DNA from: Diadema setosum
Lineage: Eukaryota
DNA: 64,000 bases
Reading direction: 5' to 3'
Assembly: GCF_964275005.1 (NCBI RefSeq)
Contig: NC_092698.1
Coordinates: 37,680,597 to 37,744,596, forward strand
In this document: piece after piece, positions 20,761 to 63,772 of the stretch
Layout: each line of letters opens with the position of its first letter
How positions within the stretch are numbered: the stretch's first letter is position 1
The notes under the pieces: generated by a model
Seen by the model: only the letters and a program-made list of their open reading frames with translations
Told to the model about the DNA's origin: nothing
The model's database searches: none
Translations under genes and position numbers: made by a program

Positions 20761-21538
20761 TTAAAGGGATCATATAGTTTTGGTTGAGACTTAACTTCAG
20801 GCTTTGATTATTTTTTGGTGAGATAGTGAGAAACCTCTTATGAAATATGAAAGAGCATGTTATTCCATGAGGATTTCAACGTTTATTTCATGAAAATTGA
20901 TTTTGAAATGGCTGAGATATCCAAAACAGAGTGATCCTAATAAAGTGTGGGACCCACACTTTATTACGATCTTTTTGTTTTTATTATTATTATTATTATT
21001 TATTTGGCAATTCAATATACAATACAAGTTGACATAAAATACAAACAGAAAATCGTATTACATGATATGAAAATTGTGGTGGTTCCAGGTGCATGCTGCT
21101 GGTTGCCAGGGGAGGAAAAGGCAAACTTAATCACCGAGTCTCGAGACCTTCCTCCTTGACCAGTGCATGCACCCAGAATCAGCTATATCGATGTAAAACA
21201 GATACAAACATTATCAAATAATACATTATTACACAAAAATGCTCTGAATTCAAACATAAATATGACTAAAATTATAACTGAATATAACCGATGCCCTATC
21301 CTGATCTGATGGTGTAAGCTCATCCAGCAAAACTGGTGATTTGATATTCTTTCAAAAAGAAACTGTTTTACTTTGTTTTTGGATGTTTCAGCTATTCCAA
21401 ACCCGATTTTCATCAAATAAACTTTGAATTCCTCTTAAAATGATATGCTCTGTACTATTTCATAAATGTTTTCTTGGTATCTCGCAAAAAAGTTAAAGCC
21501 CAATTTTCATCTCCACCAGTATTGTACCATCCCTTTAA
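20761..21538. mobile_element. Family-A MITE copy interrupted by a ~385-bp nested insertion (~20975-21360) that begins with an (ATT)n tract
   Basis: The left half (20761-20975) and right half (21361-21538) are collinear with 265-655. The interior has no similarity to the MITE. Confidence 0.7.
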
Positions 21539-23774: not shown

Positions 23775-24164
23775 TTAAAGGGACTGTACAGTACTGGCTG
23801 AGGTGGGGATTCATGTTTTGAACATTCCTAAGTGAGATAATGAGAAACCTCTTATGAAATATGAAAGAGCATGTAATTTTAAGAAGGATTTGATGTTTAT
23901 TTGATGAAAATTGGTTTTCAAATGGCTGAGATATAAAAAAAAGTGATTATAATAAAAGGCGACAGGCTACGCCTTTTATTAGGATCTCTTTGTTCACCTT
24001 GTTTTTGGATATCTCAGCCATTTCAAAACCGATTTTCATCAAATAAACTTATGATACCTCTTAGAATAGCATGCTCTTTGACAACTCATAGAGTGGTTCT
24101 GAATATCTCGTAAAACGTTAAAAGCTAAATCCTCACCTCAACCAGAACTGTACACACCCTTTAA
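23775..24164. mobile_element. Family-A MITE copy (390 bp), more diverged
   Basis: Collinear with 265-655: gagataatgagaaacctcttatgaaatatgaaagagcatgtaat ... gatgaaaattggttttcaaatggctgagatat ... ccctttaa. Confidence 0.7.
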
Positions 24165-27100
24165 ATGCACGTATCTTGTGGTGTAGCCACTTTTTGTCAG
24201 GTTACCTTCAGTACTAAACAGTGGAGAGGAGGTTATATGGACATTGGCTCTTTGCATTTCAGAAACTAAAGGTCTGTTGGCTTTTCATCATTGATTAACT
24301 GGAGGATTTCACCATAACCCGGACACACCTCACATACCTTTCTCCCATGTATTATCTCACACATCCCTGATTTCAAGAGAGATAAATAGAGAAAGAAACA
24401 ATTGTTGTTCCTTTCTGTGTTGGTCACCCCAAACAAACTTTTCTATGTTTCTGTCCTATTTCTATCTGTACTCTGCACCTTGTCTCTACTGTATCTTTCT
24501 CTATGGAAGTTATTTCTCTTCTAGTTGTGCTCTTGTTTGAGAGCATGTTTTTCCAGCCAATCTCTAAATTCCGCTCCAAATTCAGGTCACATGGATTATG
24601 ATTTGAGAGTCTTCCTGAATGGGGCTATTAGTATTTTGTGGGGAGTGGCTGTCATATTGACAGCATTGTAAACTGAAACAGGAGACAGGCTAAATTGTAC
24701 TTCCAGAGTTATAACAACAAAGAAACAAATTACAACAATTGATTTATGATGATACATGTGACAGGAACTCTTGAAACTGAATTGAAAAAAAAAAAATCCC
24801 CTTTGGCAACTTATGAAGTACCTGTCAAAGTTTGTTGATAGTGTGTTTTGAAATAACAGAATATTGAGGAAATAGGTAAATTCTTCTAACAAAAATAGAT
24901 AGCTGTAATGCTACTATCTATGCTGTTGCAAGTTAGATTCTTAAAATAAAGTTTAGTAGCAGATGAAAAAGAAAAATAAATTTTCATATCTCTTCTTATC
25001 TCAAGGCTAGGAGAGGCTTCTTCTTTTTTCTTAATGTTGGCCCTTTAAGAAAAAAAATTGTCCTGACTTGGCACAGACTGTCTCACCTGGGCCCCGAGTT
25101 TCCTGTGCAGGTCTACGTCATGGTGAAGTTAAGATACATGGCTCACTGCTGTTCTCGTTTCCTGTCATCCCAACTTACCTTGGCAAGACCCGACATGTTA
25201 TCTCTTTCTCCAGCTATCACGCAGAGAACCCATCGGAATGAGACATTGAACAGGAAACATCCAGAGCAGTCATGAAATTTTCATCCTTGACTTTTATTTC
25301 TCCTCTTCATACTTAGATATTAAAGAAGTAGAAATTTTATGACACAGACAAGCATTTTTCTCTTTCTTTTATAGGAATGTTGAGGTCTCATATTCAGGAC
25401 TGTCATGAATGGTAGCAATCAATCAAATTCTTTCTTTATTTTTTTTTTATTTGCTATGATTTTGTGACAGTTAAATGCAACCACTGACTTATGAGTAACT
25501 TCCTTGTCGAAAGTCATTTAAAGAGCCTCACAATGACCTGCCGTAAATTTGGGCCAAAAGGAAATTTATTGATTTCTCTACGCAGGTTATAGTTTTCATG
25601 TCAGGGAATTGATCTGTATGACAGTTCATATGAAAAGAGAAGATTTGTTGTTGTTGTTGTTGCTCTTTTTAAAGAGCATGATATACATGTACCTTACTTG
25701 TGCCCCTGTGGGGTGGTCATCCATACCTGTTTATAAAGTATTGGGCAATTAAACCTCTTCACTTTCTCCTCATGGGAAATGAAGGGAAATCCCATGTACT
25801 TGAGTTGTGTTTCACTAGTTCTGTACTGTCCTTTCACGCAACACTTTATCTCTATACATAAGGGGGGGGGGGGGGGGGCTTGCCAGCACCCATCATTTGT
25901 CAGACTGACCCTTATAGAAGTAGAACTGAGGGCCTTTTTGTTAGTGTCAGATGCAGTGTCCACAGGACCTAGTCACCTTCTGTATGGTAGTGTGGATGTT
26001 TCCATCTGCACTTTAGATTTGACAAGTCATGTGCAGGAGCAGATGTGAGCTGTGTTGTGTTGTGGAACATTCCCATTCGACTAGATCATCTCACACTAGG
26101 GTTTTCCACAAACAACATCCCGTAGGTCTAACAGGTGCCGTGTCTGGTTGTGGTGGGAACTTTAAGTTCATGTAGCCACAGTGACCACATTGACTTCTCA
26201 TGTCTATTTTCACTCCAGTGTTGAAGTTTTTTTGTGGCACATTGAAGATTACTCACGCTTGACCAACCAAAATGAACGTCATTTATCGTGCATGCAAGCA
26301 AAAGTGAAGTTTTTTGCTCCCTCCTAATACCCTCAGTATCTCTCACTAAAAACACAAGACTCTGTGCACCTCATGTAGGCCTCTAACAGGTAGAAATTTT
26401 AGATATGATATAAGTCACTAGATGAGTTAGTTTTCAAAGGTGGCAAGCTATGTCTCAGATGACTAAAAGTGACCAGTCATCTTCACTTAGGCAACAAGCG
26501 AAACAGATGACACCGAAGTGATTTTTAAGTATCGAGGAAGCTTACTTACCTTATTTATTTGTTTCCATGACAACTTGTCAGACTTACTGACAGATTCAAA
26601 TTTAAACCCTGAAAACAGGTCTCTGATGACAAAACTGGAATCTTGAATAGAACCAAGTCTCTTGTGTTGATTGTACTTTGTAGAGATCATCAGAATTACT
26701 TGCTATGAGGAAATATGACACAAATTACTTAGGTAGCTGGAGACAGAGTGAGAAAAAAAATAATTGGTCAATTTCCCTGCCATCTCAAAGGTTAATGCAT
26801 GTATTATCCAATAAACAACTTCTTTGAATTAACTTCTTCGATTGGTGTAAAGTTGTTAAAGGGAAGGTAAACCCAAAGAGCAATGTGGATTGAGTGAAAG
26901 CAGCAACATTAGTAGAACACATCAGTGAAAGTTTGAGAGAAATCGGACAATCGATGCAAAAGTTATGAATTTTTAAAGTTTTGGTGTTGGAACCGCTGGA
27001 TGAGGAGACTACTAGAGGATATGACGTATGAGTGGACAAAAATACAAAGAAAATATAAAGGATATTCAACAAAAATTCACTTTTCTAGAATTATGAAAGA

Positions 27101-27239
27101 GCAGTGGACCAACCGCTTTCAGAAAGCAGGGGGAATAATTGCTACCCTTAACATATGTCAATATCAAGTTGATGGATTTTGTAATTTTCATGAAAAATGG
27201 ATTTTTGTAGTATTTTCTTTATATTTTCTTGATATTCCC

Positions 27240-29485
27240 AGGTAACATGCCAATATGGGACCCATATGGGCATACTCCGGGCCACGTGGGCCATCTGGGT
27301 TAGGGTGAATCCCATATGTATTTAGCGTCAGACCCATATGGGATAACCCATATGGGTTTTTTAATGGGACTGCCCATGTGGGTATCATAATGGAAATGAA
27401 CTGGGCAAACCCATCTGGGTAAGATTGTTAAATGCCCATATGGGTTACACATGTGAAAAAAATGGGTAGACCCATCTGGGTGAGATATGTAAATACCCAT
27501 ATGGGTCTCATATGGGTATAAAATGGGCAAAGCTACCTGGGTAAAATATGCAATGCCCATATGCATACCATATGGGAATCTACTGGGTGAACCCATCTGG
27601 GTAATAAATGTAAATATCCATATGGGCTTCATAAGGGAATGAGCTGGGCATACCCATCTGGGTAAAATAAGTGAATGCCCATGTGGGTTTCGTGTGGGAA
27701 ATAAATGGGCAAACCTATCTGGGTGAGATATGTAAATATCTACATGGGTTTCATATGGGAATAAGCTGGGCAAACCCATCTGGGTAAAATAAGTAATTGT
27801 CCATATGGGTTACACATGTGAACAAAATGGGTAAACCCATCTGGGTGAGATGTATGTAAATGCCCATATGGGTTTCATATGGGTATAAATTGGGCAAAGC
27901 TATATGGGTAAAATATGCAAAGCCCATATGCATACCATATGGGAATCTACTGGGTGAACCCATCTGGGTAATAAATGTAAATATCCATATGGACTTCATA
28001 TGGGAATGAGCTTGGCATACCCATCTGGGTAAAATAAGTGAATGCCCATGTGGGTTTCGTGTGGGAATAAAATGGGCAAACCCATCTGGGTGAGATATGT
28101 AAATATCTATATGGGTTTCATATGGGAATAAGCTGGGGAAACCCATCTGGGGTAAAACAAGTAAATGTCTATATGGGTTACACATGTGAAATAAATGGGC
28201 AAACCCATCTGGGTGAGATATGTAAATATTTATATGGGTTTCATATGGGAATGAGCTGGGCAAACCCATCTGGGTAAAATAAGTAAATGACCATACGGGT
28301 TTCACATGGGAAATGAATGGGGAAAACGGTCTGGGCAGTACATGTAAATGCCCATATGGACTCCATATGGGAAGTAAATGGGTTAACCCACCTGTGTAAT
28401 ACATGTAGCCTATATGCCCATATGGGCTCCATATGGGCATGGAATGAGCAAACCCATATGGATGAGATATACAAATGCCCATATGCATACCATATGGGAT
28501 ACAACTGGGCAAACCGATCTGTGTGAGATCTGTCAATTTACATATGGGTTTCATATGGATATGAAGTGGGTAAACCCATCTGGGTAAGAGCTGAACATAT
28601 CTTTTTTGGTAACATATGGGAAAGAACTGGGCAAACCCATCTGGGTAAGAGCTGACCATATCTTTTTGGGAACCTTATGAAAAAAAAAAAACACTAGGCA
28701 AACCCATCTGGGTAATAGATGAACATATCTATACCATATTAGAGCGAACTGGTCAACCCATCTGGGCAAGAGATGAACAAAATTATGTGGGTACCATATG
28801 AGCATAAATTTGGCAAAACCCATCTGGGTAGGAGATAAACATATCTATTTGGGTACCATATGGGAATGAACTGAGCACAAATCTGGGTAGGAGATAAACA
28901 TATCTATGTGGTACCATGTTGGAATGAACTGGGCAAACTCTTGAGTAAGAGCTGAACATATCTTTTTGGCTACCATTTGGGAAAGAATTGGGCAAACCCA
29001 TCTGGGTAATAGATGAACATATCTATGTGGGTATCATATTATTGGAATGAAGTGGACAACCAATCTGGGTAAGAGATGAACATATCTATGTGGGTGCCAT
29101 ACGGGAATGAACTTGGTAAACCCATCTGGGTTAGAGATGGACATATCTATTTGGGTACCTTATGGGAATGAACTGGGCAAACCCATTTGGGCAGGAGATC
29201 AACATATTTATGTGGGTAAAATATTGGAATAAACTGGGCAAACCCATTTGGGTAGGAGATGATGTGGGTACCATACTGGAATGAACTGGGCAAACCCATC
29301 TGGGGAATAGATGAGCATATCTATTTGGGTATCATAGGGGAATGACCTGGGCAAACCCATCTGGGGAATGGATGTAAATGCTTATATGGGTTTCATATGG
29401 GGTCAACCTGGGTAGAACCATCTGGGTAAGATATGCAAATGCCCATATGGGATTTACATGGGAATGAACTTGGTAAACCCACCTG
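27240..29485. repeat. Satellite-like tandem array with a ~60-bp unit containing CCCATATGGG and ACCCATCTGGGT; higher-order repeat of ~375 bp (e.g. 27409-27786 vs 27786-28160); a variant unit from ~28560
   Basis: The motifs recur with regular spacing. Spurious stop-free ORFs appear in the window's six-frame ORF track (27300-29001). Confidence 0.8.
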
Positions 29486-32400
29486 CTCATCATAACACCC
29501 CTACCTGAAAATGGAACTGACCCAGAATTTGAAAAGAGGGTCCGGTTCATGCCCGTTATGCAGTGCAGTATATGCATTGGCATTAGGACTGATTGATCTC
29601 CTTCAGTACAGTCAGAGCTTGGTGATCATCTGTCTTCGCCTCATTTTAGGTAAGTAGATAAACTTATTTTTGTCAGCATGTTGTATTTAAAGTACCTAAG
29701 ATGTTGATTGCAAGTTATTGAAAAAGATAATCCCAATTCGGCAAGCTATAAAGGCAATAACAAATATGTAAGTTGGGATGGTATGTGAGCATGTTGCCTC
29801 CATGGATCATCCATAGAATATTATACATGAAGATAGGTGTATTCAAAGGTTGTAGGCCTGCTATGTCATATGATTTTGTTTAATTCTAAATATTGCTTTA
29901 TAGATTTGATTTGGGGTTTAATCTCATACTCTGTGTATAGAAATTAATGCTGTTTAGCATTATTTCATTTTCATTTCAATACTTCAGATCACTGAGTTTC
30001 ATTTAAACAAAATGGAGTAACAGTATTTGAGAAAACATTTACGCATACAGAATTTTACAAATAATTGCAATAAGGGAAAACACTAGCTGTGAGATGTATT
30101 GAAACAAAGGGAGCTGATGAAAGCACTCGATCAGTGATTTTAATTGCAGTTCACTCATAGTTTAAAGTATGCATTATGATGATATCAAATCAGAAATTAC
30201 GTTTTTACATATTATAATGGAAACATTAACTATAGGATAACTAGACTCGCTATTTCCGGGTTCACCACAAAAGCCCAAGTGGAGAATTAAGTTTATGCGC
30301 AGTACTGTGTAATGGTTTGGTATGAACACGTCCCACACAGTATTGGTAGTATACAGCTTTTTAGTATTCAATCCTGAACCATCTAAACACACCCACACCG
30401 TACGGTACTTAGTATGAGGAGCTTGCAAGGTCATTCAACCTCCCCAACTCCACAGCATCTCTGCAGAAGGCTGTGGTCAGTTGTTTGGGTTATAAAGTCA
30501 CAAAGGTCACATTCCATCAGGGAGACTCACCTCCCTGATTCCATAAGAAAACAGTCTCAAATGAGTGGACAACATAATATATGCATATTACCTAAAGCTT
30601 GGCTCTATTAATGTACAACTGGAAAGCACAAGTATTTTTTGCAGTTACCATAACCAAATACTAAGCGTGTGAGAAAGAGTCTTAGCTTCTGAACAGTATT
30701 GCAATTAGTTTTACTGTGACATGCATAAAATGTATTTAGGAGGAGATCTGAGTGAGTGAAGCCTAACTGCGATTTTCATGCTCCTGTATTATCAGAGATG
30801 TGTATATACAACGTGTACGTAACACTTTAAATAAACACACGTATATAGGCCTACGTTTCACAGTAGTAATCAGTATAGCAGTGGCATTTGGAAATAATTA
30901 TATGAAAAGAAGTTAGGCCTACTGATATTTGTGTCATCATAGCTCTAGTTGGCATATTTTTTTCTGTCTACTGTAAATATGTTTTAATAGTTTATGTTGT
31001 TTAAGTTGTATTACTCCTTCTCAAAAGAGGTAATTGATAAGCATAATTTTCCCTCTTATGATAGAAGTACAATTGTAAGATAGTTTGGGGGTTTAAAGGC
31101 TATCTAGTGTATTGTTATGTCTCAAATTCCTTCTAAGAAATAAGTCATGTATAGGTTTATAAATCATACCAGATTATGAGCTTAAATAGATTTAATTTAC
31201 AGGCCCTACTGGTAGTCAATATCGAGTAAATAGCAATCAATTGTAGGTTTAACTTCATATCGTTTGTCCAAAATATTTATTGACCACTCGCAATCTTTTT
31301 TTTTTATGTGTACACATATTCCTTTCTCCGTGTCTGCCTTTCTGTTCACTTAATCAAATTATACTCAAAATTTACTCAAATTATAGCTTCTCCTAAATCT
31401 TAACTGTCATTTACTGTTTAACGGATAATCAAAACTTGTCCTTTGATCTTCCTGGGTTTGTTTTACAATCAAATGAATTAAAAGATTCATTCAAAAAAAA
31501 AATCTTCGTAATGAGATGAGGTGTAAGTTGATATCTTTCTACTCACCCTCAAGCAGTAACTTATTTTGCAATGTTCTAAGTCGTTTATCCTAATTCGTAA
31601 TTGTTGCAATTTCCTTTGCTCTGGATGTATAAAAACTATATTTATCCCTTGACTGATTTTGTTTTCTTGTTTCACAATCAAATGAAGATTGAAATACATT
31701 GCATTTGCAATGTGTATAATTCGATATTATTTCCATTATATGAAAATGAAAACCAATGGTAATACATGTACACCGAAAATATTTCTGTCCCTCTCTTCCT
31801 CTTTCTCTCTCTCTCTTTCCCTTTGAAGCTTATTCATTTTGATAGTTTTAAACTACGTATATGACCCTCTAGTTATGAAGAAAGTCGAACAAATCCTGTA
31901 AGAGTATAGGCTAACAATTGTATACTGAATTTTTAAAACCCATGTAACTATGCATTCCTTTATACAGTCATGTATTCAAATACTGTACAATGTAATGTTG
32001 CATGCCTGTATCTCTCAATAATTGAATCTAGCAATATTTCTGATGAAAAACATGTGTAACACATTTTATATGAAGATTGTAATTCCATGAATATATTTCT
32101 CCCTCTGTCATTGCAGATCTGGTGAAGAGAAAAGATGGACAAACACAGCAAGACTTCACGCAGCATACATTTTAAGGTCTACACAATAAGAAATCAGAAC
32201 AGTGGAATAAAATAGCTGGATGGACAAAAACAAAGGCGGTTTGCAGCACAGGTTCAGGGAGAATTAGATGGCAACGCCTAAATTTCAAAAGTGCATAAAT
32301 TTTGACAAAATTGTGCAATTTTCTTCAAACCTTACTGAACTGTTCTTTTCATATTGCTGCATTCACTCAATCAACGTTTATTTTGGGTATTCCCCTTACA

Positions 32401-32877
32401 GAAGCTGTTAAAAAGATCTCACCATTTCTAGCTTTTACGCTTGTTTATCAAGTAATATTATATGAATGCCTATATTCAGCTGAGGGACACAAGACAACAG
32501 ATTTCAATTAGAACAATGCACAAATATATCCACTTTGAGAATAAGATACTTGATCTATTGAGTACATACATTCAAGAGTGAATTGAGGGGAACAATACTT
32601 CTCTATGTGTAGGTCATTGGTGGTGGTGGATGTACAGTGTATATACAGTATGTTTACATGGTATTTAGGTAGCTTTCGAAGATGTGCCACCTTACTAGGG
32701 CTGTTCATCGAAGAAATAAACAAACATTCTACACGCTAAGTGGACTGCTCATAACAGAGGTTTGATGTCAGTTTTCCATCAACTCAGTGTGCCAGTGTCT
32801 CCTGCCATTGCTGCTGGGCAAGCTGTGGTTAATCATAATGAGGTAGGCCTATTGACAATATGGTAAACTCACCGTTG

Positions 32878-33830
32878 GCAAAAATATTAGCCACGTTACC
32901 CAGATGGGACCCACGGTGTACCTATATGTGCTATCTTGGAGCCCCCATATGGGTCCCATGTAAATATTGGGTGCAAATTCCTAGGGGCTCCATATATGCA
33001 TACCCATGTGGGACCCATGCTAAAACCCCATCTGAAGCCCATATGGGAAACCCACATGGTGCCCACATATTTACCACATACATTACCAAGATGGGTCCCA
33101 TTGGGATCCAATATGGGTCATTTTGGATTGCCCATATGGGTCCCATGTAAATCTAGGGTGCAAAATCCTAGGGGGCCCGTATGGGCATACCCATGTGGGA
33201 CCCATGATGAAACCCCACACAAAGCCCATATGGGATAACCCACACAGTACCCACATATTTACCACATACGTTGCCCAGATGGGTCCCACAAGGAACCCAT
33301 ATGTGTCATTTGGGATCGCCCATATGGGTCCCATGTAAATCTTGGGTGCAAAATCCTAGGGGCCCCATATGGGCATACCCATGTGGGACCCATGATGAAA
33401 CCCCACACAAAGCCCATATGGGATAACCCACACAGTGCCCACATATTTACCACATACGTTGCCCAGATGGGTCCCACAAGGAACCCATATGTGTCATTTG
33501 GGATTGCCCATATGGGTCCCATGTAAATCTTGGGTGCAAAATCCTAGGGGCCCCATATGGGCATACCCATGTGGGACCCATGATGATTTCCCAGCTAAAG
33601 CCCATATGGGATAACCCACACAGTGCCCACATATTTACCACATACATTACCCACATGGGCCCCATCGGGAACTCATATGGGCCATCTGGGACAGCCCATA
33701 TGGGTCCCATGTAAATCTTGGGTGCAAAATCCTAGGGGTCCCATATGGGCATACCCATGTGGGACCCATATTCAAACCCATATTGGGCCCATATGCAACC
33801 CATATGGGCATGTTACCTGGGTTGTAGTCC
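32878..33830. repeat. Tandem array of ~180-bp unit, about 5 copies (e.g. 33283-33463), orientation opposite to the array at 27240-29485
   Basis: The unit tacccagatgggtcccac...cccatatgggtcccatgtaaatcttgggtgcaaaatcctaggggccccatatgggcatacccatgtgggacccatgatgaaacc recurs in tandem. ACCCAGATGGGT is the reverse complement of ACCCATCTGGGT from the left array. Confidence 0.8.
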
Positions 33831-34723
33831 ACTCATACGTCATAACCTCTAGTAGTCTCCTCATCCAGCGGTTCCAACACCAAAACTTTAAAAATGCATA
33901 ACTTTTGCATCGATTGTCCGATTTTCTTCAAACTTTCACTGATGTGTTCTACTAATGTTACTGCTTTCACTCAATCCACATTGTTCTTGGGGTTTATCTT
34001 CCCTTTAACTATGGGAACTACTCTTAAGGAATAATGGTTACATTTTTTTTCCCCGAAAGATCAAGCAAATAGTCTAATAGTTTGCATGTATCAAACAAGA
34101 AAAAGAATTTTGCGTATTTCATAAAAATATGTTTTGAAGCCATCAGATACAGGCAACAGAGGCCTTGTAGAGAAAACAGTTAGTTTTGGGTTTTGTACTT
34201 TCTGAATGATACGTATTTTGTTAATTGTTAGTACAAGTAAAATAATTTCTGCGCATCAGATGAATAACCATGGGAACTACTCTTAAGACTTAAAAGTGAT
34301 CAGATTTTTTTTTTTTTTTTTTTTTACACAAAGATCAAGCAAACAGTCTAATAGTTTACATGTATCAAACAAGAAAAAGAATTTTTCATATTTCATTACA
34401 ATATGTTTTGAAGCCATCAGATACAGGCAACAGAGGCCTTGGAGAGAAAACAATTAGTTAAGGTTGTTTCTTTTTCTGTACTGTCTGAAGAATATGTACT
34501 TTGGTCATTGCTAGTTAATGATTTCTAGGCATCAAATGAATTATGCAACCATCTGAAAAGTAATGGAAAGAGGTTTGTAAGTCTTACAAATGGAGAAAGG
34601 ATGATTATTTCATTTCTGTCATCAAAAGATGGGCGGCAGTGCAGTAGTAGCCAGGGCTTATTGGATAAATTTCCTACTACCACGTAGAAATCTAATTTCA
34701 GAAGAAGGCTATCTCACCCAAAA

Positions 34724-34773
34724 ATGTTAGAAACCTGAAATTAGGTCTCAACCAAAACTATACTATCCCTTTA
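34724..34773. mobile_element. Solo terminal fragment (50 bp) of family-A MITE
   Basis: agaaacctgaaattaggtctcaaccaaaactatactatccctttaa matches the right end of the family. Confidence 0.55.
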
Positions 34774-35936
34774 ATCTCTCAAGGCAATCATTTCTTGTTT
34801 AAACTGAGCATTTCTGGGTTTTTTTAATTCCCCCCCCCCCCCCCATTGGTTTATGCCACATGTGGGGAAATTAAATCAAACATTAATCAGGGTGGTTTGA
34901 CACCCTGGACTAGTATATAAAATTTGTATGATTTCTGTGATGGTGATAAAATCTTCTGACTATGGTTAGAGGTTGAAGAGTGAAAGAAACTTGACAATAA
35001 TGTGTAAATGGCAGGAATTAATGATGCAAACTATGTGTCACTTCCTGATTCTGACGTCTTTAAGTTTTATTGTAATTTTCATCCTAAATGCATATTTGTA
35101 GATTTAAGTTATGGTGATGATGTAAAAATGTGCCCAAATCCTCCAGGGGACTTTTAAGAAGTTCCGATTCTCTTTGAGCGGTAGAACGAATGGAGACAGG
35201 AATGTAGGGGCTCAGTCTGAATCAGGATGCCCCCCTGAGATGGGGCAAAAAACTTTAGCCATTACCTTAAAGGAAGCACGCTGTTCTGGTTGTATCCTGC
35301 TCTCCTTACCAACTCTCTTTTATAATCTTCTACACTGCTTTCATCTTTCCCCTTCATATGATGTTTGGGGGTTCTGTTTGTGTGGTCTTTATTGTATCCC
35401 TGAATTTGTATGCCATTCCATGTTCACATCAAGTTGACTTCCGGTAAATCATGATTCGGTATTTTTACCTTCCTCATTTTCTCTCTCTAGTACTGTCCTT
35501 AGTGCACAATATTCTTTTTTTTTGTCTCCTTTCCCTTCTCTTTATATATCTTTTTGTCTTTTCTTCTCTTTTCTTGTTTTTGTCAAAGTATTTAGATGCA
35601 CTTATACCTCATTCCTATTCCCTGGGATATCACTTTTTTCATTTCAACGAGTCTTGTCACTTGTAAGGCTGATCATCAGATGATGTGAGTTGAATTAGAT
35701 GGTTGAATAAAAATGCTGTCAGAGACATTCCAAAGTTTGTGAAATGAAAATCAAGTCATTCCTGTCTTTGTGTTGCTTGATTTTCGTAGTGTGCTCTTGA
35801 TTTTGTATCGTTAAAGGACATCTTAGAGTGCAGTGCCAGGGCAAGAGGATTCTATGCAGAGATCGACTCTTCTTCATCTTATATATTTGATGGAGAAAGT
35901 TGAAGTAGTTTCACATTTTATCCAAATTTGAACCAG

Positions 35937-38566: not shown

Positions 38567-39132
38567 TTAAAGGACAAGTTCACCTTCATTAACATAAGGA
38601 TTGAGAGAATGCAGCAATATTAGTAGAACACATCAGTGAAAGTTTGAGGAAAATTGGACAATCGATGCAAAAGTTATGAATTTTTTAAATTTTTGTGTTG
38701 GAACCGCTGGATGAGGAGACTACCAAGGCTCGTGATGTCATATGAGTACAACAATATAAAGAAAATGTAAAGAAAATTCATCATATTTTCACTTTTTTCG
38801 CATTATAAAAGAGCACTTGACTTGCCTCTTTCTAAAGGCAATTGGAATAATATTACCCATAACATATGTCAGTAACGAGTCAAGGGAATGTGTACTTTTT
38901 TCAAAAGATGAAATTTTGTGAAATTCTCTTTATATTTTCCTTATATTGTTGTACGCATGTGACATCATACACTGCATTAGTCTTCTCATCCAGCGGTGAC
39001 TTCACAAAAACTTCAAAAATTCATAATTTTTGAACGGATTGTCCGATTTTCCTCAAACTTTCAATGATGTGTTCTACTAATATTGTTACATTCTCTCAAT
39101 CCTTATGTTAATGAAGGTGAACTTGTCCTTAA
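38567..39132. mobile_element. Intact family-B MITE (566 bp, long hairpin; TTAA at both ends)
   Basis: The termini ttaaaggacaagttcaccttcattaacataaggattgagagaatg and cattctctcaatccttatgttaatgaaggtgaacttgtccttaa are perfect inverted repeats. There is further internal self-complementarity, for example ggaaccgctggatgaggagac with its reverse complement gtctcctcatccagcggttcc. There is no ORF. Confidence 0.8.
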
Positions 39133-39220
39133 AGACATTTTGTTTGATTCCTTTTTACTCCTGCACTTCAGCCATATGTAGAAATTGTTCTAGGGCAATC
39201 ATCCCCTAGACAATTGCCCC

Positions 39221-39322
39221 AGACCCTGACCCTAACCCTAGTCCTAATCCTGAACCTAATCCTAACCCTAACCCAAACTCTAACCCTAAACCTAACCTTA
39301 ACCCTAATCTTAACTCAAACCT
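39221..39322. repeat. Degenerate telomere-like (CCCTAA)n tract
   Basis: ccctgaccctaaccctagtcctaatcctgaacctaatcctaaccctaacccaaactctaaccctaaacctaaccttaaccctaatcttaactcaaacc. This is the reverse complement of (TTAGGG)n with substitutions. It lies about 90 bp from the MITE at 38567-39132. Confidence 0.6.
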
Positions 39323-41983
39323 TATCACATGCCCTGATACGGTAGAAATTGTTGATTTGGCTATGCATCCGAAGATTGAAATGTTTCATTTTCTTCACTT
39401 ATTTCACTGGTTCCGATGAGTTATTATGGTATATCAAAGGCATGCTAAAATTTTTGGTTTTACAAAAATTCACACCTTTCCTTATAATTATAAAACTGGC
39501 AACTTCTTGATGATGGAAGGGGCTGCAATGTATAGATTTCCAGTGAATTTATTTGGAAAGTGAAAAATTCTGACCGTTATTTTCAGTACAAAAAGGGAGA
39601 GTATTTTTTTTTACTGACATGGGGTTAGTTTTCCATTTCTTAAAAAAAAAAAAAAAAAGATTTTCATACACAAAGTTGGGAGACATCATTTTTAACCATG
39701 CAAAATTTTGTGATGTGTACAAAGGGGATTATATGACCTTGAAGTATCATTTCTACTCAGCACACACACATCTCAACATCTCCATAATTATATATAATTG
39801 ATGCCATGCTGCACGTGAGTAATATTCAAGGTATACTCTGAAGATGTTGACAACATATTGTTAAAGAAGAGGCACCTTGGTGACTGCTGTACCACCTCTC
39901 TTTTTCTCATGGTTCCTGATACTGTTGCTCCAGTACCTCTTTGAAGCCTCCAAGATTCAGTTAGCTGATAATCAGCGTGATCTTCCATCATGTGATTGTA
40001 CTTGTGATACACTGCCCTTTACCTGTCCATGCAGAACTGACACAGTCCTTGCTGTGTGTATACGGATTTATTATTGGGTATTCTTTGCTTGGTATTGGAT
40101 TTCATTATCTGGGACTTTTTTTGGGTCTCGTTTCACCTCCAACTGCCATTATTCCAAGCTCTGAGGTTACAAAAGTGTAATTTTCTTCTCCGCCTTGTCA
40201 TGAGACCAGGAGGTACAGGGGGAATCAAAGGAACTGTGATCATGGGAGAAGGAAGAGTAAGTGGGACTAAGTTGCTGCAAAGATACGGATGCACCAATAT
40301 CCTCCTTTTCATGACAAATACTGTAAAACCAGAAATTTTTGTGTACATTCAATTTTACGAATTTTGGGAAAACATTCGCGAAATTAAAATGCGTGCAGAA
40401 GTTCGTGTCTACACCACGCATTGAATGCCACTGGCAATTCATGAAAATTCATGGCGTGAAAATTTTTTGCTTTACATCGCAAAAATCATTATCTTCATGG
40501 TATTTTTCCTTCCAAAATGTATGGTGTAAGCAGTCACTGTAATTTTTGGGAAATTTCTGAGCAAAAGTGTTCGAAAAAAATTGCTATTCCTGGCTGAATA
40601 ACTTTGAAATAATGATCAGTGAGATATATCACGATTTGAGACTGGAGCATAATTGCATTTTAGTATCAAGATTTTGTATAAAACTATTTATATATAGTAC
40701 ATGGTGAGGCAGTGATATCATCAACCCCCACATTTGCATATTCATGTTGACCCTTCAAGAAGTGTTTTTTGAAAATAAGCGAACTTTCACAATTTTATAA
40801 CTTCCTGAATATTTGTCTAATTTTATAACTTTTTAGAAGAACTGAGCATTTATTACTCTGAATCCTTATTTTTCTGTAGCTTAATATCGACAGAATATTA
40901 GAGACTTTTGTTGGAAGTATGACCACCTAGTGTACCTTCTTCAAAGTGGAAACATTGTTGAACAGTGCCTTTAAGCTGAATGTTTGTCTGGGAGGATTAT
41001 GATTGTGGTCATAGCATCCTACAACCCTCTCAGTCCAGAGCTAGGCCCCAAATAGTATGTTTAATAGCCAGTCAATGACACCCTCAAGGTTGAATCTTTA
41101 TTCTCATCTAATTCCCTCCTATAAATGAGTACAGCTGCCATCCTAGACTCACTAATCCAGGATTATGCTGTCTTGAGGACCCCAGCTATCCATTGCCCAA
41201 CTCTGTATGCATCAAATCGTATATACTGGATGAAGTGTAGGCATCTCAAAACAATATCTGTATGGTGTGTATGATGAATCAGACCATAGAACCAATTGTT
41301 TAGTCTCTCTTGATGCCTTGTTCTCTGTGTATTGATGGATGTTATGTTTCATCTGACAAAAGATAGTAATGAATTGCTAAAACCAAGACTTACTTTCCCA
41401 TTCAGTTTACAATGTTCAATTCTGTTTAGCACCGATTTCACTGGAAGGGTTTAATGTAGGTTGACACGATGAGCTAGTCATTTTGTAATACCTCATAAGA
41501 AACAAACAGTGACGTACTTTTGACGGACTGCTAATGGCAGAATTCCAATGAGGAGTGCAAGCATTCATGCAGACTTACCAATGTAAAGACTCAGATAGTA
41601 CTTTGTTTTGCAAATGCATGAAAGACTGCTATTTTGATTTAATACCGGTAGTAGGGATTTCCCCCCATGTGTTACACTCTGGATGAGAAGGAGAGAAGCA
41701 CATTGTGATATATAACAGTCAGACATGATAGACAATAATGAGTTCTGGGACAAAGTAGTGTGGCATTCAGAGTCAAAGTAAACATTGAAAGGTAAACAAG
41801 TTCAATCAAGAAAAATGTTCATTCCTGTTTAGTGAGATGTATCATTGTCTTTGTAAGGCTGTTGCACTTCAATACCTTTTTTTTTTCTTTTGCACATCAG
41901 AAGTGTTTACTCTGTGACTATGATTTGATTAATTACCAGGTACAGTTTCTTCTTCCTCTTTTCTTTCTTTTGTTTACCTGCAG

Positions 41984-48700: not shown

Positions 48701-49440
48701 TCAAAGCTGAACCTTGAAATCTACATCTATATATATATAAAACTTAAGACAAAGAAATAAAAAATTTATACATGTACAAAATTCTACGTCATTATTTACA
48801 CCAAACATCATATTAAAAGGCAAAAAGGTATATACCTTTTTGGTCTTTTCCTCTATGAAATCAAATAATTTTTTCCATAAAAGTAGTGTTTTAGGACAGT
48901 GTACAAATAGATGAAAAGCAGTTTCCTGTTCTTGACTACAAAACATACAGTCTGGGTGTTCTATTTTTTTAATCTTAAATAAGAATGCATTTAAACCAAT
49001 AATATCATGAAAAACCTTAAAATAAAAGGAACGAAGTTGTGTTTCAACAGTACATTTATAGTTATTCATATGAATAACATCCCACTGAACTGTTTCATCA
49101 TTAATGGAGAAGAGGTCTTTCCGCTTACCTATTCTTTTCTCACATGAGGAGTCACAATATACATTTCTTATTACCGAATAAGCATGTTTAGAATTTTTTT
49201 TTTTCACCAGCTCTGACACTATTTTATCAAACATATCTTCATCGGTATCCAAGGAAGAATCAAACCATGAAAGATAGATACCATTCATTAAAGAAAGGAA
49301 AGAAATCTGAAAACAAATGGGTGTTTGACGATGCAAACAAAATAGAATAAGAATTAGGAGTAGGAAAATGTAGAGTTTGTTGAAGAAGGCCGCTTGGGGA
49401 AAGAAGGTGAATTGTATTAAGAAGTGTGAATACAAAACAA
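48701..49440 (-). mobile_element. 5'-truncated non-LTR retrotransposon ORF2 C-terminal fragment with CCHC motif
   Basis: A 244-aa ORF on the - strand ends with HPDCMFCSQEQETAFHLFVHCPKTLLLW, a C-x2-C-x11-H-x4-C motif typical of the LINE ORF2 C-terminus. The poly-T run at about 48137-48152 on the + strand could be its poly(A) tail on the - strand. Confidence 0.55.
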
Positions 49441-51855: not shown

Positions 51856-54007
51856 GTATAAGGTACCAACAATTCTATAACTAAGCCCTTTACGTAGGTT
51901 ACCTACCCTGTGTACGGGGAATCAATTTGCAGGCCATTAAGTGACCCAGAGATTAACATGATATTGACCCCGGCTGTATTAAATTGTTGTCTTCCTTCCT
52001 CTACCGATGAAATCTTTTGACAACACCTCCAAGATGGCAGCTGTGACCAGATCGTATTCAAATTGAAGACGGCATGGTCACTAGTCCAACGCCTACAAAT
52101 GGCGGCACCATCACGTGCCATCGCGTGCGCGCTTTCACAAATTGAAACTCGAGAGATATTTTGCTGGAAATCTAATCAACCAATATGTCAGTTTATATAT
52201 CTCTGATAAGTTTCCTTCCACTTGCTATATCCAGGCCATCAGACAAAACATTCCGAACATCCGCCTGTCGTCTGTCGGTTCTTCTTGCCGCCCTTCCGAT
52301 GTGACTACATGTCAAGACTTCCTCTTGGTATTTTGCTAGGGATTTTATATCTGAAAAGAGACCTTTACCTGGTTTTCCCATTAATAGTACATTGTATCAT
52401 TATTTTGTATTTACATGATACTGAAAAGAAATGATTTTTTTTTTTTCGAAGAATGACATTGATATTGGCTTGCTGAATGCAAGGTTGATTTAAGAGAATG
52501 TTATTTACTAATGACCGTATAAAAAAAGTCTATACGTCTGGAGGTGTGTGGGCCTGCCCAGTTGTCTCTGTATAGTCATTTTTATTCTCCCTATTCAAGC
52601 AAGATGTTAAGACGTTTTTGATAATACAACAATCTGTAGAAGACCGATGAGTGGTGATGGTGGCAATTCACACACAGTCACTTCTAGCATTGGACGAGTT
52701 TGCGGTTCAAGTATAAAGTATATCTTTCAGAGTTTAACGGGTTTAGAATAAAACTTTTGAAAGTTTCAATTGCCGAGTCATACATAAGTTTCTAGGGAAA
52801 GAAAAGAGTACTAGTATATTTCCTTGGGTCGATCATGACCAGATGATGGATTCGTAGAAGAGAAGCCCTTGACACTCTTTATGTTCTCTTTCTCATTTCT
52901 GCAGATTCTGGATTGGTTTCTGTTATGACGGGTGATCCCGTATAAACGGCTGCTGGCGCCACCAAAGCCCCAGATTCTGAAATTCTCGTCAGTCGCACTT
53001 TTCTCCAACGTTGTGCAATTATTGTCTTTATCTTCGTTCACCCGGAAAATCCGTCCGTGTCAACAAGATGGAGCTTCGAGACGTCATAATCGACCTTTTC
53101 AATCTGGACAAAAACATTTCATGCGCTTCCCCGACTCCAATCCACCCCGAAAATAGCTCCTTTTAATGGCATTGTTTTCCATAACCTTATACAGTGGCAC
53201 TCAATCATCTGCACGGGGATTTTTGTCCATAGAGACCCAAAGCGCAGCGATCAGCATGCAAGCAAAATTCGATTGCCCAAGAGATCGGCGTACTGTCCTT
53301 GATGTAACTCAAATTTTATAAAGGTGTTTGTCACTCACTAACGTAAAAGGAATTGACAGAACAATGAGAATTCGCAGAACAGTTACGAGTGACGAAGCCA
53401 AAACAGAACACGTGGGATTGTAGAGCGTCAAGCAAGTTGTTCGATCTAAAATGGAAAATAAACTGTACTGGGATGGGATTTAGTTGGCCATTGCATAGAA
53501 AGATTGATATTTGTAATCATGTCGGGGGGGGGGGGGGCATTGTAAATATGATGTAAAATCAAATATCTTGGAATACCTCGGGCAGAGTTGTGAAGGCATT
53601 TTTCTTTTTTCTCGTCATAGAGAGAAATCAAAAGTGAAAGTTGTTGACATTTTTCGCAGAAAACAAAATGAAGTGTAAATTGCATGTAGGATGTTATACA
53701 ATCACTTGATTGTCATTGTGTTTTTATTGTCGGTTTGGCAAGGCTAAAATTTCGAATCAGCTCCCCCAAAATAAGGTATAATCTGATTGACTGCAGAAAG
53801 TATTGACTAGTAACCCCGCGGCAAATGATTACACACGAACACTGCCCTGTGTAATCTATACATTATTCAGCTCCAACATTTTGGCTATCTGTTACTGGAT
53901 TCCGGGATAAAAAGCCATGGCATGAAAGGTACAAATATAATATTACTCATCCAGACATCTGAGATGGCTTACCTATAGCCTTCCCACTGTCTGGCTCTAC
54001 AATTACG

Positions 54008-54040
54008 ATAATAATAATAATAATAATAATAATAGTGGCT
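54008..54040. repeat. (AAT)n microsatellite; possible 3' tail of the minus-strand LINE at 54610-55655
   Basis: ataataataataataataataataat. Confidence 0.8.
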
Positions 54041-54609
54041 ACTTGTATAGCGCACAGGTCCACTTTTCAGTGCTCATGGCGCTTCAAAAATGAAAAATAT
54101 CATATATTTACATGCATATACATATTCAAACATTTCAACAAAGAAAAAAATGGTAAACAAAAGCAAATATATACCAAATAAAGAATACAACATATATCAA
54201 TTAAAAATACAATATTAATCCAATATTAAAGACATACAGCAATAACAGTCCTCAGTATGAAAGGAACAGATAAGTTTTAAGTTTGGATTTGAATGACTCT
54301 GTAGATGACAGTTCCCTTAAAGGCATAATTTACCATTTGCAGATGAAACAAAAACCCAGCATTAGTGCTTTAAAATAGTTCTAAAATGTGAGTTAGGGAT
54401 AGAAACAACCACTGTCAAAATTTGAATCCGTATAATCGATGTTAAGTGTTGTTAAATACACAAAATGTGAACAATAGTTATAATAAAAATGTTTCTAGAC
54501 TAAAGCGTATACAGTTACGGTTTACTGAGAAAAACCCTGATATCTCCTTTATATTTTAGGTTTTATTGCAAATATTTCATATGGTAGGATGTTTTATGAT
54601 ACAACAGAC

Positions 54610-55655
54610 CTACACATATGCATCAAATGTGATATCTTGAACATTTTTGAAATCACTGCTCCCAAAGGTAAACTGGACCTTTAACTGAAGAGGTAACTGA
54701 TTCCACAATTTTGGTCCCATAACGGAAAAAGCACGATCACCATACCCATGTTTTACTCTGGGTGTTTGGAGTAAGAATGCATCTGATGATGAACGTAGCC
54801 TTCGTGTCGGATTGTATTTTTGAACAGAATTACTTATGTATATTGGGGAAAAAGAATGAACTGAATGATGTACTAATAACAGAATCTTGAAAATAATCCT
54901 TTTTTCTACAGGTAACCAATGTAAGGAACGGAGAACTGGTGACATGGAATCAAACTTATTAGTAAAAGTTAACAATCGGGCAGCAGAATTTTGCAACCGT
55001 TGAAGTTTTGTGACATCTTTTTTTGAAAGATTACACAACAATGAATTCGAAAAATCCAACCGAGAAGAAATCAAAGCATGAATAAGTATCTCAGCTGCAG
55101 ATTTAGACAAATATTTCCTTATGAAACTTAAATTACGCAACTGATATCGAACATTCCGCTGAATATGAGTTACATGACTTCGAAATGACATTTCCTGATC
55201 AAATATGACACCTAAATTACGGGCTGTTTTCGACGGAGTAATGCAAGTGCTACCGATGTTGACATGACATGACTGATAATCAACTTTGCTTAACATATGC
55301 TTTGATCCCAATAACAGAAACTCAGATTTATCATCATTTAGTTTAAGGCCATTGGATGTAAGCCAAATTTTCAGGTCTTGCAAACATGCTTCGAGTTTTA
55401 CAATGGCGGATGACAATGAAGACACAGTGGGTTTAAAAGACAAATAAAGTTGTATATCATCCGCATAACAATGATAACTAATACAATGCTTGCGAAATAC
55501 TTCACTAATTGGTTGCATATACAGAGAAAAAAGCAGCGGGCCTCCAACAGAACCTTGAGGTACACCAAACTTTGTCATAGTTTTACAAGAGGTAGAATCA
55601 CCAATTCTGACATAATGAGATCGATCACATAAGTAGGATATAAACCAATCACCTT
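54610..55655 (-). mobile_element. 5'-truncated non-LTR retrotransposon (L2/CR1-type) ORF2 fragment: RT domain plus C-terminal tail
   Basis: The - strand frame reads ...SYLCDRSHYVRIGDSTSCKTMTKFGVPQGSVGGPLLFSLYM...YADD...LQRLQNSAARLL...LRSLHWLPV...RAFSVMGPKLWNQLP. These motifs are characteristic of L2-clade ORF2, as established for the family. The frame extends upstream of the first Met to about 55653, and there is no endonuclease or N-terminal RT. A possible 3' tail is the (AAT)n tract at 54008-54040. Confidence 0.7.
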
Positions 55656-57456: not shown

Positions 57457-58042
57457 TTAAAGGGATTGTATAGGTTTGGTGGAGAGGAGGCTTCAGATTT
57501 GCTTTTTTTTGTGTAAGATAATGAGAAACTACTTACGAAATATGAAAGAACATACAATTCAAAGTATATTTGATGAAAATCGGATTTAAAATGGCTGACA
57601 TATCTAAAAAACAAAGCGGTCCTATGAATGTTGGTTCTAACCTTTATTAGGACCACTTTGTTTTTGGATATCTTAGCCATGCCATTTCAAAACCAATTTC
57701 ATCACATAAACCACTTGTGGAATATGAAAGAACATACAATGTATAAATCCCACGAGGAATTCAAAGTTTAGTTAATGAAAATCGGTTTAAAATGGCTGAG
57801 ATATCCAAAAACAAGTGGTTCTAAGAAAAGGAGAGACCAATCTTTGATTAAGACCACTTTGATTTTTGGATATCTTAGCCATTTCAAAACCAATTTTCAT
57901 CATACAATATCAAATAACCTTTGAATTCCTTAAAATTTTATGCTCTGATATTTTATACGTGGTTTGGCATTATCTTACATCTAACAAAAACAAGTTAAAA
58001 ACCTGAAGCCACATCTCAACCAAAACTACATCATACCTTTAA
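57457..58042. mobile_element. Family-A MITE copy with an internal ~185-bp partial duplication (1.5 copies)
   Basis: It starts ttaaagggattgtatag and ends cctttaa. The segment gaaatatgaaagaacatacaat...aaaatggctga[gc]atatc[ct]aaaaa occurs twice, at 57538 and 57722. Confidence 0.65.
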
Positions 58043-62733: not shown

Positions 62734-63772
62734 TCAGAGGTCCAAACCTGTATCAATAACAGCCACATCTTCACTGGACGTTCCCCCGTAGAGCACGTCT
62801 AGGGCTCTCTTACAGTCACTCACTGTGGTCTTGGCAAGGAATTGGCACTTTAGCTGGTCTGAGAGGGACACGCCCCCCTCTTGGGATGCACTCCCTAACA
62901 GTGCTGAGATTGCCATCTGTGAGACAGCGTTGGCACGCTCCACCGCCAACCATCTCTCCAGTGCTCCATCCAGGGCACCTGGTGTCGCGGCATTCTCTGT
63001 AAGAAAGGTGGCAGGTGGGCCCCACAACAAGCACTGAAGTAGAGTCACGGCTTGATCACAAGTTAGCCTGTCTTCAGGCTTCTTAGTGAGAAGTTTGCAG
63101 GCAATGGTATGGAGGCCCTGGGAGAGAGGTGACTTGACAGGAATGTGGGGTAGATCTTCTTTGGCATAGTCAGAGATGATAAGGCTTGTGCGAGTTGAGA
63201 ATGGGTTAGCATGATGTAAGAACTCGTACACAAGGATACCCACATCAAATTCATGGCATTTTTGCTCCAGCTTGGATGCCACACCCCCCTCAGCTGGTGA
63301 CAACACAGGAGCCGCGGTTACTACTTCCGCTCCGATCAAGTGGTTGATGACCAGTCTCTGACCACCACCGGGCAGCCCACTGTTGACCAGCAGGAGGTGA
63401 TCCAACTTAAGGCTCTCCAGACACATGTGGTGGGATTGCAGCTGGCACAAACCTTGGCACAATTGCAGCAACATTGTGGCGACGTCTCGCTCATAGACAT
63501 CCGGGAGGCACTCATGCTTTTCTGCATTCTGAGTCACATACTCGGCAACGTTTACTGCCGGCAGACAGTCCGTGATGATGACGGCCGTCTCAAAGGAACC
63601 GTCTGGTTGGGGAGAACCACGAGACTTGCGCTGCTCCAGTAGTGAGGGGTTGATGGTGACAGTGTCTTTGGCAGCATGGCTGACTGAGATGAGGTTGGGT
63701 TGTGGAAACATGGATCTCGTAATGTCCGCCATGTGGAGTACTTGAGATGTCTTGCTGGGATTACAGCATACC
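62734..63772 (-). CDS. Terminal coding exon of a protein-kinase-like (probable pseudokinase) gene; partial gene, upstream exons lie outside the window
   Basis: A 332-aa ORF on the - strand (62734-63732) with non-repetitive, GC3-rich codon usage. It shows kinase C-lobe landmarks with degenerate catalytic motifs. The HRDLKxxN position reads CLESLKLDHLLL. The APE..DVWSLGVILYELL region reads SPAEGG...FDVGILVYEFLHHANPF. The subdomain XI region reads KKPEDRLTCDQAV. The frame stays open 13 more codons upstream of the Met, up to a minus-strand acceptor tttttatatttctgtag at about 63773-63789. The N-lobe is too short to be complete, so the exon probably begins at that acceptor. Confidence 0.6.

Follow-up and report, generated by a model that had tools for sequence, protein, structure and literature searches.

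A T2/Kolobok-type MITE and a decayed telomere-like tract in Diadema setosum DNA: probably two unrelated neighbours

In a stretch of 64,000 nucleotides of Diadema setosum DNA (the window), a palindromic miniature transposon of the MITE class, which we call MITE-B, lies close to a run of degenerate CCCTAA hexamers. This raises the question of whether the two arrived together, or through a common cause, or whether their vicinity is fortuitous. Both parts are of well-described kinds, the first being a T2/Kolobok-type MITE and the second a decayed short interstitial telomeric sequence (ITS). The explanation that we favour, with a probability of about 0.6, is that two unrelated and ordinary insertions stand side by side, a Kolobok-type MITE and an old short ITS resulting from break repair. 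The features of the locus are listed in Table 1.

Table 1. Features of the MITE-B and telomere-like tract locus (positions in the window)
Feature	Positions	Strand	Basis or remark
TTAA, left target copy of MITE-B	38567-38570		rule established by comparing filled and empty sites in family C
MITE-B body, 559 bp; terminal inverted repeats AGGACAAGTTCACC (38571-38584) and GGTGAACTTGTCCT (39116-39129)	38571-39129		inverted arms, hairpin, ORFs, homology to family A
TAAA, degenerate right target copy of MITE-B	39130-39133		one base off TTAA: one changed or one T lost
44-bp spacer from MITE-B to the first direct-repeat copy	39134-39177		no other copy in the window or fetched loci
GTAGAAATTGTT, copy 1, putative target duplication	39178-39189	+	repeat search, random-position test
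28-nt filler CTAGGGCAATCATCCCCTAGACAATTGC, overlapping small palindromes	39190-39217	+	hairpin fold, direct reading
Degenerate (CCCTAA)18 tract	39218-39325	+ (C-rich strand; TTAGGG on -)	TRF, register analysis
CACATG CCCTGA TACG: badly decayed unit, in-register CCCTGA, 4-nt filler	39326-39341	+	direct reading, register
GTAGAAATTGTT, copy 2	39342-39353	+	repeat search, random-position test

The hexamer periodicity, which the sequence-only reading of this DNA had allowed might dissolve into CT-rich low complexity, held up in both the register analysis and the shuffle statistics. TRF reported a repeat of period 6 at 39223-39307, with 14.2 copies, 78% matches and 0% indels. The complete tract consists of 18 hexamers in a single register, devoid of indels, with 19 mismatches over 108 positions (82% identity to (CCCTAA)18). 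It had previously been placed at 39221-39322; the tract is real, and its start is at 39218 rather than 39221. Units 1 to 9 read CCCAGA, CCCTGA, CCCTAA, CCCTAG, TCCTAA, TCCTGA, ACCTAA, TCCTAA and CCCTAA, and units 10 to 18 CCCAAA, CTCTAA, CCCTAA, ACCTAA, CCTTAA, CCCTAA, TCTTAA, CTCAAA and CCTTAT, so that four of the 18 are perfect CCCTAA. The lag-6 autocorrelation amounted to 0.73, as compared to 0.32 ± 0.05 (maximum 0.51) in 5000 dinucleotide-preserving shuffles, and the best-register identity to 0.82, as compared to 0.42 ± 0.03 (maximum 0.58) in the same shuffles. As both values exceed those of the shuffled sequences, the tract displays a true hexamer periodicity and is not mere CT-rich low complexity. 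The next unit is ruined, but it is followed by a CCCTGA (39332-39337) that is again in register and with which the array may comprise 20 units. In the 64 kb, no other telomere-like stretch was found at a threshold of 25 of 36 matches, in any rotation of the motif and on either strand. The tract is internal: within the window, it is followed by non-telomeric DNA over 38 kb in one direction and over 25 kb in the opposite one. Its G-rich strand corresponds to TTAGGG, the prevalent telomere motif of metazoans (PMC8480181).

The MITE that had been noticed at 38567 is also real, since inverted arms, terminal repeats and hairpin were all found. With its target copies, it spans 38567-39133, and its body is a near-perfect palindrome. 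The outer pair of inverted arms (38567-38722 and 38978-39133; 156 nt) is 90% complementary and the inner pair (38733-38797 and 38903-38967; 65 nt) 82% complementary, which makes the element almost entirely palindromic. As single-stranded DNA, it folds into a single long hairpin of -181 kcal/mol, compared with -52 ± 5 kcal/mol for shuffled sequences (z = -25). The left junction reads gatgatg-TTAA-AGGACAAGTTCACC and the right one GGTGAACTTGTCCT-TAAA-gacatt, the terminal inverted repeats matching exactly over 14 nt. The terminal 18-mer gave 3 matches with at most 3 mismatches, for 0.03 expected. The longest ORF encodes 55 aa, and the architecture is that of a short element with inverted termini, without transposase ORF and with several related copies. 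A 10-nt repeat, AAGACATTTT, found around MITE-B was judged to be due to chance.

At least nine T2-like MITE loci, distributed over four families (A, B, C and D), were found in the 64-kb window, i.e. about one per 7 kb. Family A, the ends of which read TTAA-AGGGAAGGTAAACCC, was found by window self-comparison and multiple alignment as two halves (26857-27240 and 33820-34010). When joined, these halves align end to end with B, indicating that they are one element split by a 6.6-kb insertion. The interiors of A and B are 80% identical along a stretch of 354 bp and 87% identical along one of 150 bp; the two families differ mainly in the first ~35 bp, and a further B-related copy is present at 32272-32390. 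To judge from these alignments of their interiors (~80-87% identical), A and B are subfamilies of one family. A scan for TTAAAGG...CCTTTAA pairs with complementary ends disclosed family D, with ends AGGGAT, at 20761-21538, 23775-24164 and 57457-58042, as well as family C (body at 54321-54680; 54317-54684 with the flanking TTAAs). BLAST added to family D a copy at 265-655 and a fragment at 34709-34774.

Family C showed where the elements begin. Its host is an L2-like LINE, of which a 99.2%-identical copy is present on ENA contig L002 (sample ERZ27290654). The empty site on this contig reads ...gacagttccc-TTAA-ctgaagagg..., with a single TTAA and no insert, whereas the filled site of the window reads ...gacagttccc-TTAA-AGGCATAATTTACC...GGTAAACTGGACCT-TTAA-ctgaagagg.... 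This comparison showed that TTAA is the duplicated target and that the element proper starts at AGG, and also that at least one of the families moved recently. The heptamer TTAAAGG is thus to be read as the duplicated target TTAA followed by AGG, the start of the inverted repeat. The earlier suggestion that the TTAAAGG start of families A and B hints at a shared transposase source was strengthened by these data and can be made more precise, as A and B share a TTAA target, inverted ends starting with AGG, and closely related interiors.

The target flanks are TTAA/TTAA in families A, C and D, and TTAA/TAAA in family B. The terminal pentamers are AGGGA in A and D, AGGAC in B, and AGGCA or AGGTC in C; A and D thus match the motif AGGRR in full; B and C match its AGG, the base that is not R being the fifth in B and the fourth in C. 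The AGGAC of B satisfies AGGRR at the first R only. The definition of T2-MITEs comprises a TTAA target and the terminal motif AGGRR; these elements have been attributed to Kolobok, for which the terminus is described as RR or AG (PMC6004289). The ends of autonomous Xenopus Kolobok elements include AGGACAAGGAAAGCTT and AGGACATGTCAACCCC, and AGGAC... ends are among them (Table 5 in PMC6004289). The end of MITE-B, AGGACAAG..., is identical to the first 8 bases of AGGACAAGGAAAGCTT, the end of XKol-A4, and to the first 6 bases of AGGACATGTCAACCCC. By its TTAA target duplication and AGG termini, MITE-B is therefore a non-autonomous transposon of the T2-MITE/Kolobok type. It was presumably mobilised by a Kolobok transposase (DDE + THAP); none is encoded within the 64-kb window. 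The elements resemble the Xenopus T2-MITEs (Xmix/T2-A1, T2-C and others) and Kolobok, their presumed autonomous partners (PMC6004289), in their TTAA duplication, AGG(RR) ends, size of a few hundred bp and non-coding nature, and also in forming several subfamilies at high density in one genome. They differ by their host, by the fifth base of B, which is C and not R, and by the almost complete palindromy of B. A derivation from piggyBac was also considered. The target of piggyBac is TTAA and its ends begin CCC...GGG; a piggyBac-derived MITE was ruled out because the ends start with AGG and finish with CCT in all four families.

MITE-B and the tract are separated by 84 bp, of which no other copy was found in the window or in the fetched loci. 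This places the tract outside MITE-B. The earlier description of the element as 'directly abutting' a tract within 90 bp is thus right as to the proximity and overstated as to the contact. About 2.5% of the window (calculated from the coordinates) lies within 90 bp of an end of a T2-like MITE, which means that the coincidence is not trivial and the proximity is mildly unusual. The pairing was singled out because it is eye-catching, and other classes of repeats are also abundant in the window.

This short distance, together with the frequent presence of mobile elements beside ITSs (PMC6410037), is what speaks for a link between the two, the tract being brought by the MITE or its parent element, or both having a shared cause such as an insertion hotspot. 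We consider such a link improbable. The ends of MITE-B are sharply set by its inverted repeats and TTAA flank, and the tract lies beyond them, with 44 bp up to the first copy of the direct repeat that surrounds it; this repeat, GTAGAAATTGTT, would be the tract's own duplication, at a site that is not TTAA. Furthermore, cut-and-paste transposition leaves flanking DNA behind. None of the other T2-like MITE loci of the window (at least eight) is accompanied by a telomere-like tract: such a tract is absent from both ends of family A, which is the closest relative of B and shares its interior, and from families C and D. The proposal that the tract was carried by an adjacent element, or that the site attracted insertions, is therefore not sustained by the position of the tract outside the MITE ends, its own 12-nt duplication and the absence of a tract at these other loci. 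The 84-bp proximity is most likely a coincidence in a MITE-dense region.

What brought the tract to this site is best approached through its flanks. The 12-nt direct repeat GTAGAAATTGTT brackets the tract and is exact. When flanks of 84 nt and 100 nt were taken around random 108-nt segments of the window, 0.6% of the positions outside the satellite block showed an exact direct repeat of 12 nt or more (empirical p ~0.006), it being understood that the repeat itself had been found post hoc. This is suggestive of a target duplication created by the insertion of the tract, though the repeat could be due to chance. The 152 bp comprised between the two copies (39190-39341) consist of 28 nt of filler, the hexamer array and 4 nt (TACG). 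In the filler, GGGCAAT pairs with ATTGCCC, and CCCTAGACAATTG (39204-39216) mirrors AAATTGTTCTAGGG (39182-39195), a segment into which one half of the duplicated 12-mer extends. The filler hairpin has a free energy of -6.9 kcal/mol (z ~-3), and 2 of 200 shuffled sequences folded as well. A lone CTAGGG in the opposite orientation is present at 39190-39195. Read on the minus, G-rich strand, the order is flank, CGTA, (TTAGGG-like)n, filler and flank, which fits the addition of repeats to a minus-strand 3' end at a break.

Such an arrangement has precedents. Mammalian short ITSs comprise 2-25 units, and the human genome contains hundreds to thousands of them; they have been attributed to insertion during double-strand-break repair with the involvement of telomerase (PMC6410037). 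Comparison of mammalian ITS loci showed one-step insertion at breaks, with a 'duplication' at 5-16% and an 'addition' at 16-17% of the loci (PMC2246262). Mismatches are more numerous in older ITSs (PMC2246262; PMC6410037). The tract described here shares with these sequences (Nergadze et al. 2007, PMC2246262; PMC6410037) its internal position, its single orientation, its 18-20 TTAGGG-type hexamers, which is within the 2-25 range, a short target duplication and non-telomeric filler, which are described classes, and, like old ITSs, numerous mismatches. With 82% identity, it is more degenerate than most catalogued short ITSs, and in the present case the insertion and the role of telomerase are putative. 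By analogy, the tract is probably an old short ITS, i.e. a repair scar; its age is indicated by 18% decay without indels.

The two events would have proceeded as follows. A transposase of the Kolobok superfamily, acting in trans, would have recognised the AGG... inverted ends, excised MITE-B and pasted it into a TTAA, which was thereby duplicated. Independently, a chromosome break at ...GTAGAAATTGTT... would probably have been repaired by end joining. During this repair, telomeric repeats would have been added to the minus-strand 3' end, by telomerase or through capture of telomeric DNA, and some templated fill-in would have accompanied the joining of the extended end to the opposite side of the break. 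The traces of this join would be the 12-nt target duplication and the filler, which is palindromic and 28 nt long at one edge of the array and 4 nt long at the opposite edge; the repeats would then have decayed by ~18% through point substitutions. We infer the break-repair origin, its one-step character and the role of telomerase from the structure of the locus. If the tract was inserted in one step with a 12-nt duplication, a tract-free allele would read ...CATATGTAGAAATTGTTGATTTGG..., without the 152-bp insert; if MITE-B was inserted independently, a MITE-free allele would read ...GATGATGTTAAAGACATT....

Among the other accounts of the tract, the leading one, which we nevertheless regard as unlikely, is that it is an ordinary hexanucleotide microsatellite, in which replication slippage would have expanded a fortuitous CCCTAA-like sequence that decayed afterwards, in which case the match to the telomere motif would have no mechanistic meaning. 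The 18 units in one register without indels are compatible with unit-wise slippage followed by point mutation, but the exact 12-nt repeat that surrounds tract and filler points to an insertion rather than to growth in situ, and mammalian TTAGGG arrays have been argued to arise in one step, unlike classical microsatellites (PMC2246262). Next in order, and also unlikely, comes the possibility that the 152-bp unit is a copy or a fragment of an unrecognised mobile element with internal telomere-like repeats. Such an element might be retroposed or SINE-like, the 12-nt repeat being its target duplication, or it might be a tiny minus-strand Helitron-like element (5'-TC..., hairpin, ...CTAG-3'). Twelve nucleotides is indeed a typical length for the flanking repeats left by target-primed reverse transcription, and on the minus strand the unit ends with GGGGCAATTGTCTAGGGGATGATTGCCCTAG, a hairpin leading into CTAG, while its start is readable as A-TCAGGG, i.e. 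TCAGGG preceded by an A. Yet a second copy of either flank was found neither in the 64-kb window nor in the fetched loci (30 kb), and the repeat array is at neither extreme end of the unit, unlike the tail of a retroposon. No tRNA-like or other RNA-family match was obtained either: ARAGORN detected no tRNA-like SINE head in the window, and Rfam, searched with the whole window at the gathering threshold and with 38900-39700 at E ≤ 10, returned no telomerase RNA, ribozyme or other relevant match. The sole LINE examined has (ATT)n at its end instead of telomere-like repeats, and a LINE tail was for this reason rejected as the source of the tract. Helitrons start with 5'-TC, finish with a 3' hairpin followed by CTRR, and insert between A and T without target duplication. 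The candidate minus-strand mini-element has the TC, the hairpin and the CTAG, but its 3' neighbour is A instead of T and it is flanked by the 12-nt repeat; it was rejected.

We also considered that the filler could derive from telomerase RNA, the addition of repeats during break repair having been ended by read-through of the template boundary by telomerase. In the telomerase RNAs of non-vertebrate animals, a stem-loop, P1.1, located directly 5' of the template forms the template boundary (PMC4712671, PMC8480181). In the sense of the telomerase RNA (plus strand), the present locus shows a hairpin, a 3-nt linker and CCCTRA repeats, an order the polarity of which fits template-boundary read-through. 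A parallel is provided by the TERC-ITS loci of mouse and rat, in which telomeric repeats are joined to retrotranscribed telomerase-RNA sequence (PMC2246262). As in these loci, non-telomeric sequence is joined directly to the repeats, the hairpin being separated from the first repeat by 3 nt, on the C-strand-sense side. The rodent loci differ in carrying the 3' domain of TERC and not the template-boundary region, and the palindrome of our filler mirrors the local flank, which favours local templating over a telomerase RNA source. We hold this origin of the filler to be very improbable. If true, it would represent a TERC-ITS locus outside rodents and the fossil of a template-boundary bypass that occurred in vivo.

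The least probable of all these explanations is that the tract is the relic of a chromosome end, either the point of a telomere-telomere fusion or a former subtelomere. Degenerate repeats with many variant units are found in subtelomeric and fusion ITSs (PMC6410037), and one reversed CTAGGG (39190-39195) is present. In a fusion ITS, two arrays stand head to head, (TTAGGG)n(CCCTAA)n, whereas the present tract has 18-20 units in one direction and at most one in the other. The array is only ~110 bp long, it is surrounded on both sides by ordinary TE-rich DNA without adjoining subtelomeric satellite, and a 12-nt duplication is not expected at a fusion. The tract shares with the human 2q13-q14 fusion ITS degenerate telomere-like hexamers at an internal site, and differs from it in its lack of head-to-head arrays, its far smaller size and its flanking duplication.

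The locus had been assigned to an intron. The only recognisable host coding sequence in the window is on the minus strand, at ~62734-63772, where a 332-aa ORF is preceded by a splice-acceptor-like ...tttctgtag. This ORF matches the pseudokinase domains of human PEAK1 (6bhc, E = 6e-42) and PRAG1/SgK223. Its sole database relative, P0001 (ENA ERZ26222911), is 62% identical and finishes with the same ...DL-stop. As the position of the stop is kept in a related species, we take this PEAK1/PRAG1-like exon to be the terminal coding exon. Since the gene runs in the direction of decreasing coordinates, the region at 38.5-39.3 kb is situated 23 kb downstream of the stop and not in an intron of this gene; the assignment is thus unsupported. 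The contig from the related species (L001) covers the PEAK1-like exon and the upstream side only. Ten further long ORFs in various parts of the window, of which three are located no more than 1.2 kb from the tract, gave no match in Pfam. Nor is the further claim supported that interstitial telomeric repeats are uncommon in introns, as short ITSs number hundreds to thousands in humans; a subset of short ITSs is found among the TRF-binding sites, and these sites are enriched in introns and in the vicinity of genes (PMC6410037).

The recognition of the TTAAAGG elements (at least nine loci in four families) as T2/Kolobok-type MITEs should help repeat-masking and TE classification in this genome. 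The tract is a routine feature of the scar type and matters little beyond annotation; it would be more notable only if a telomerase-RNA origin of the filler, or a genome-wide association of MITEs with ITSs, proved true.

Exact-protein look-ups with the ORFs of the window did not find the same locus in public assemblies. Two conserved core blocks of the MITEs gave no exact-pattern match in JGI metagenome contigs, GTDB genome contigs or IMG/VR, and conceptual ORFs across the MITE core gave none in a database of 5.8 billion proteins. Relatives of the LINE reverse transcriptase of the window led to contigs L002-L004 (ENA samples ERZ27290654, ERZ26222911 and ERZ27290468). Neither MITE-B nor telomere-like tracts were present on contigs L001-L003. 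The LINE reverse transcriptase itself is ~50% identical to teleost L2-type elements, and 98% identical to the protein P0002 encoded on L002 (99% for the DNA); its identity to proteins encoded on other contigs is 79-83%.

The T2-like MITE group, whose members target TTAA, has been recently active, as a comparison of filled and empty sites shows. An L2-like LINE in the window carries the family C MITE at a TTAA in its 3' part; a LINE copy 99% identical to this one (ENA contig L002, about 2007-2013, sample ERZ27290654) carries an empty site with one TTAA. The MITE was inserted after a very young LINE copy, so the group has moved in recent times.

Features located in the window
Feature	Position	Strand	Details
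T2-like MITE, family C	54317-54684		360 bp; ends AGGCATAATTTACC / AGGTCCAGTTTACC
T2-like MITE, family D (fourth family)	265-655, 20761-21538, 23775-24164, 57457-58042; fragment 34709-34774
Insert within MITE-A	27241-33819		about 6.6 kb
Tandem array inside this insert	27379-29485		61/367-bp units
Tandem array inside this insert	32893-33769		188-bp units
L2-type LINE	53990-55651	minus	RT ORF 54610-55578
ORF with zf-RVT domain	48701-49435	minus	244 aa; E = 1e-8
Terminal coding exon, PEAK1/PRAG1-family pseudokinase	62734-63772	minus	E = 6e-42 to PDB 6bhc

The 3' end of the LINE (GAAGCGCCATGAGCAC...GTGCGCTATACAAGTAGCCACT(ATT)n) was 97% conserved over 64 nt in a contig from a related species (L003, 1521-1584), compared with only 79% DNA identity in the RT region. 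This conservation probably reflects a 3' element recognised by the reverse transcriptase. The zf-RVT ORF is a piece of a second non-LTR retrotransposon, distinct from the L2-type LINE.

Family D is represented by 4-5 copies, 68-90% identical, with ends consisting of TTAA followed by AGGGAT.GTA.AGT..TGG and a typical length of about 390 bp; the copies at 20761 and 57457 are longer due to internal insertion or duplication. A similar 367-bp TTAA-AGGTACTGGG element was found in another related-species contig (L001, 3734-4100).

The insert that splits MITE-A has inverted-repeat ends, CCAGGTAACATGCC(A/C)ATATGGG, with no obvious target duplication at them. At the point homologous to its junction, MITE-B reads TATATT|GTTGTAC. 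Nearly the whole interior of the insert is made of tandem arrays around CCCATATGGG palindromes; a diverged fragment of MITE-A/B also lies inside it (32272-32390), and no Pfam domain was found in its long ORFs. The insert could be a non-autonomous element that carries satellite DNA, perhaps Helentron/HINE-like.

The degenerate telomere-like (CCCTAA)n tract is adjoined by an inverted repeat, AAATTGTTCTAGGG / CCCTAGACAATTG (39182-39216), and half of the 12-nt putative target duplication falls within one of its arms. The appearance of this repeat suggests filler left by end joining, either snap-back or templated; alternatively, it could correspond to a telomerase-RNA-like template-adjacent hairpin.

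The stop position of the PEAK1/PRAG1-family exon is kept in its sole database relative (ENA ERZ26222911), which is 62% identical; the upstream exons of the gene lie past the end of the window.
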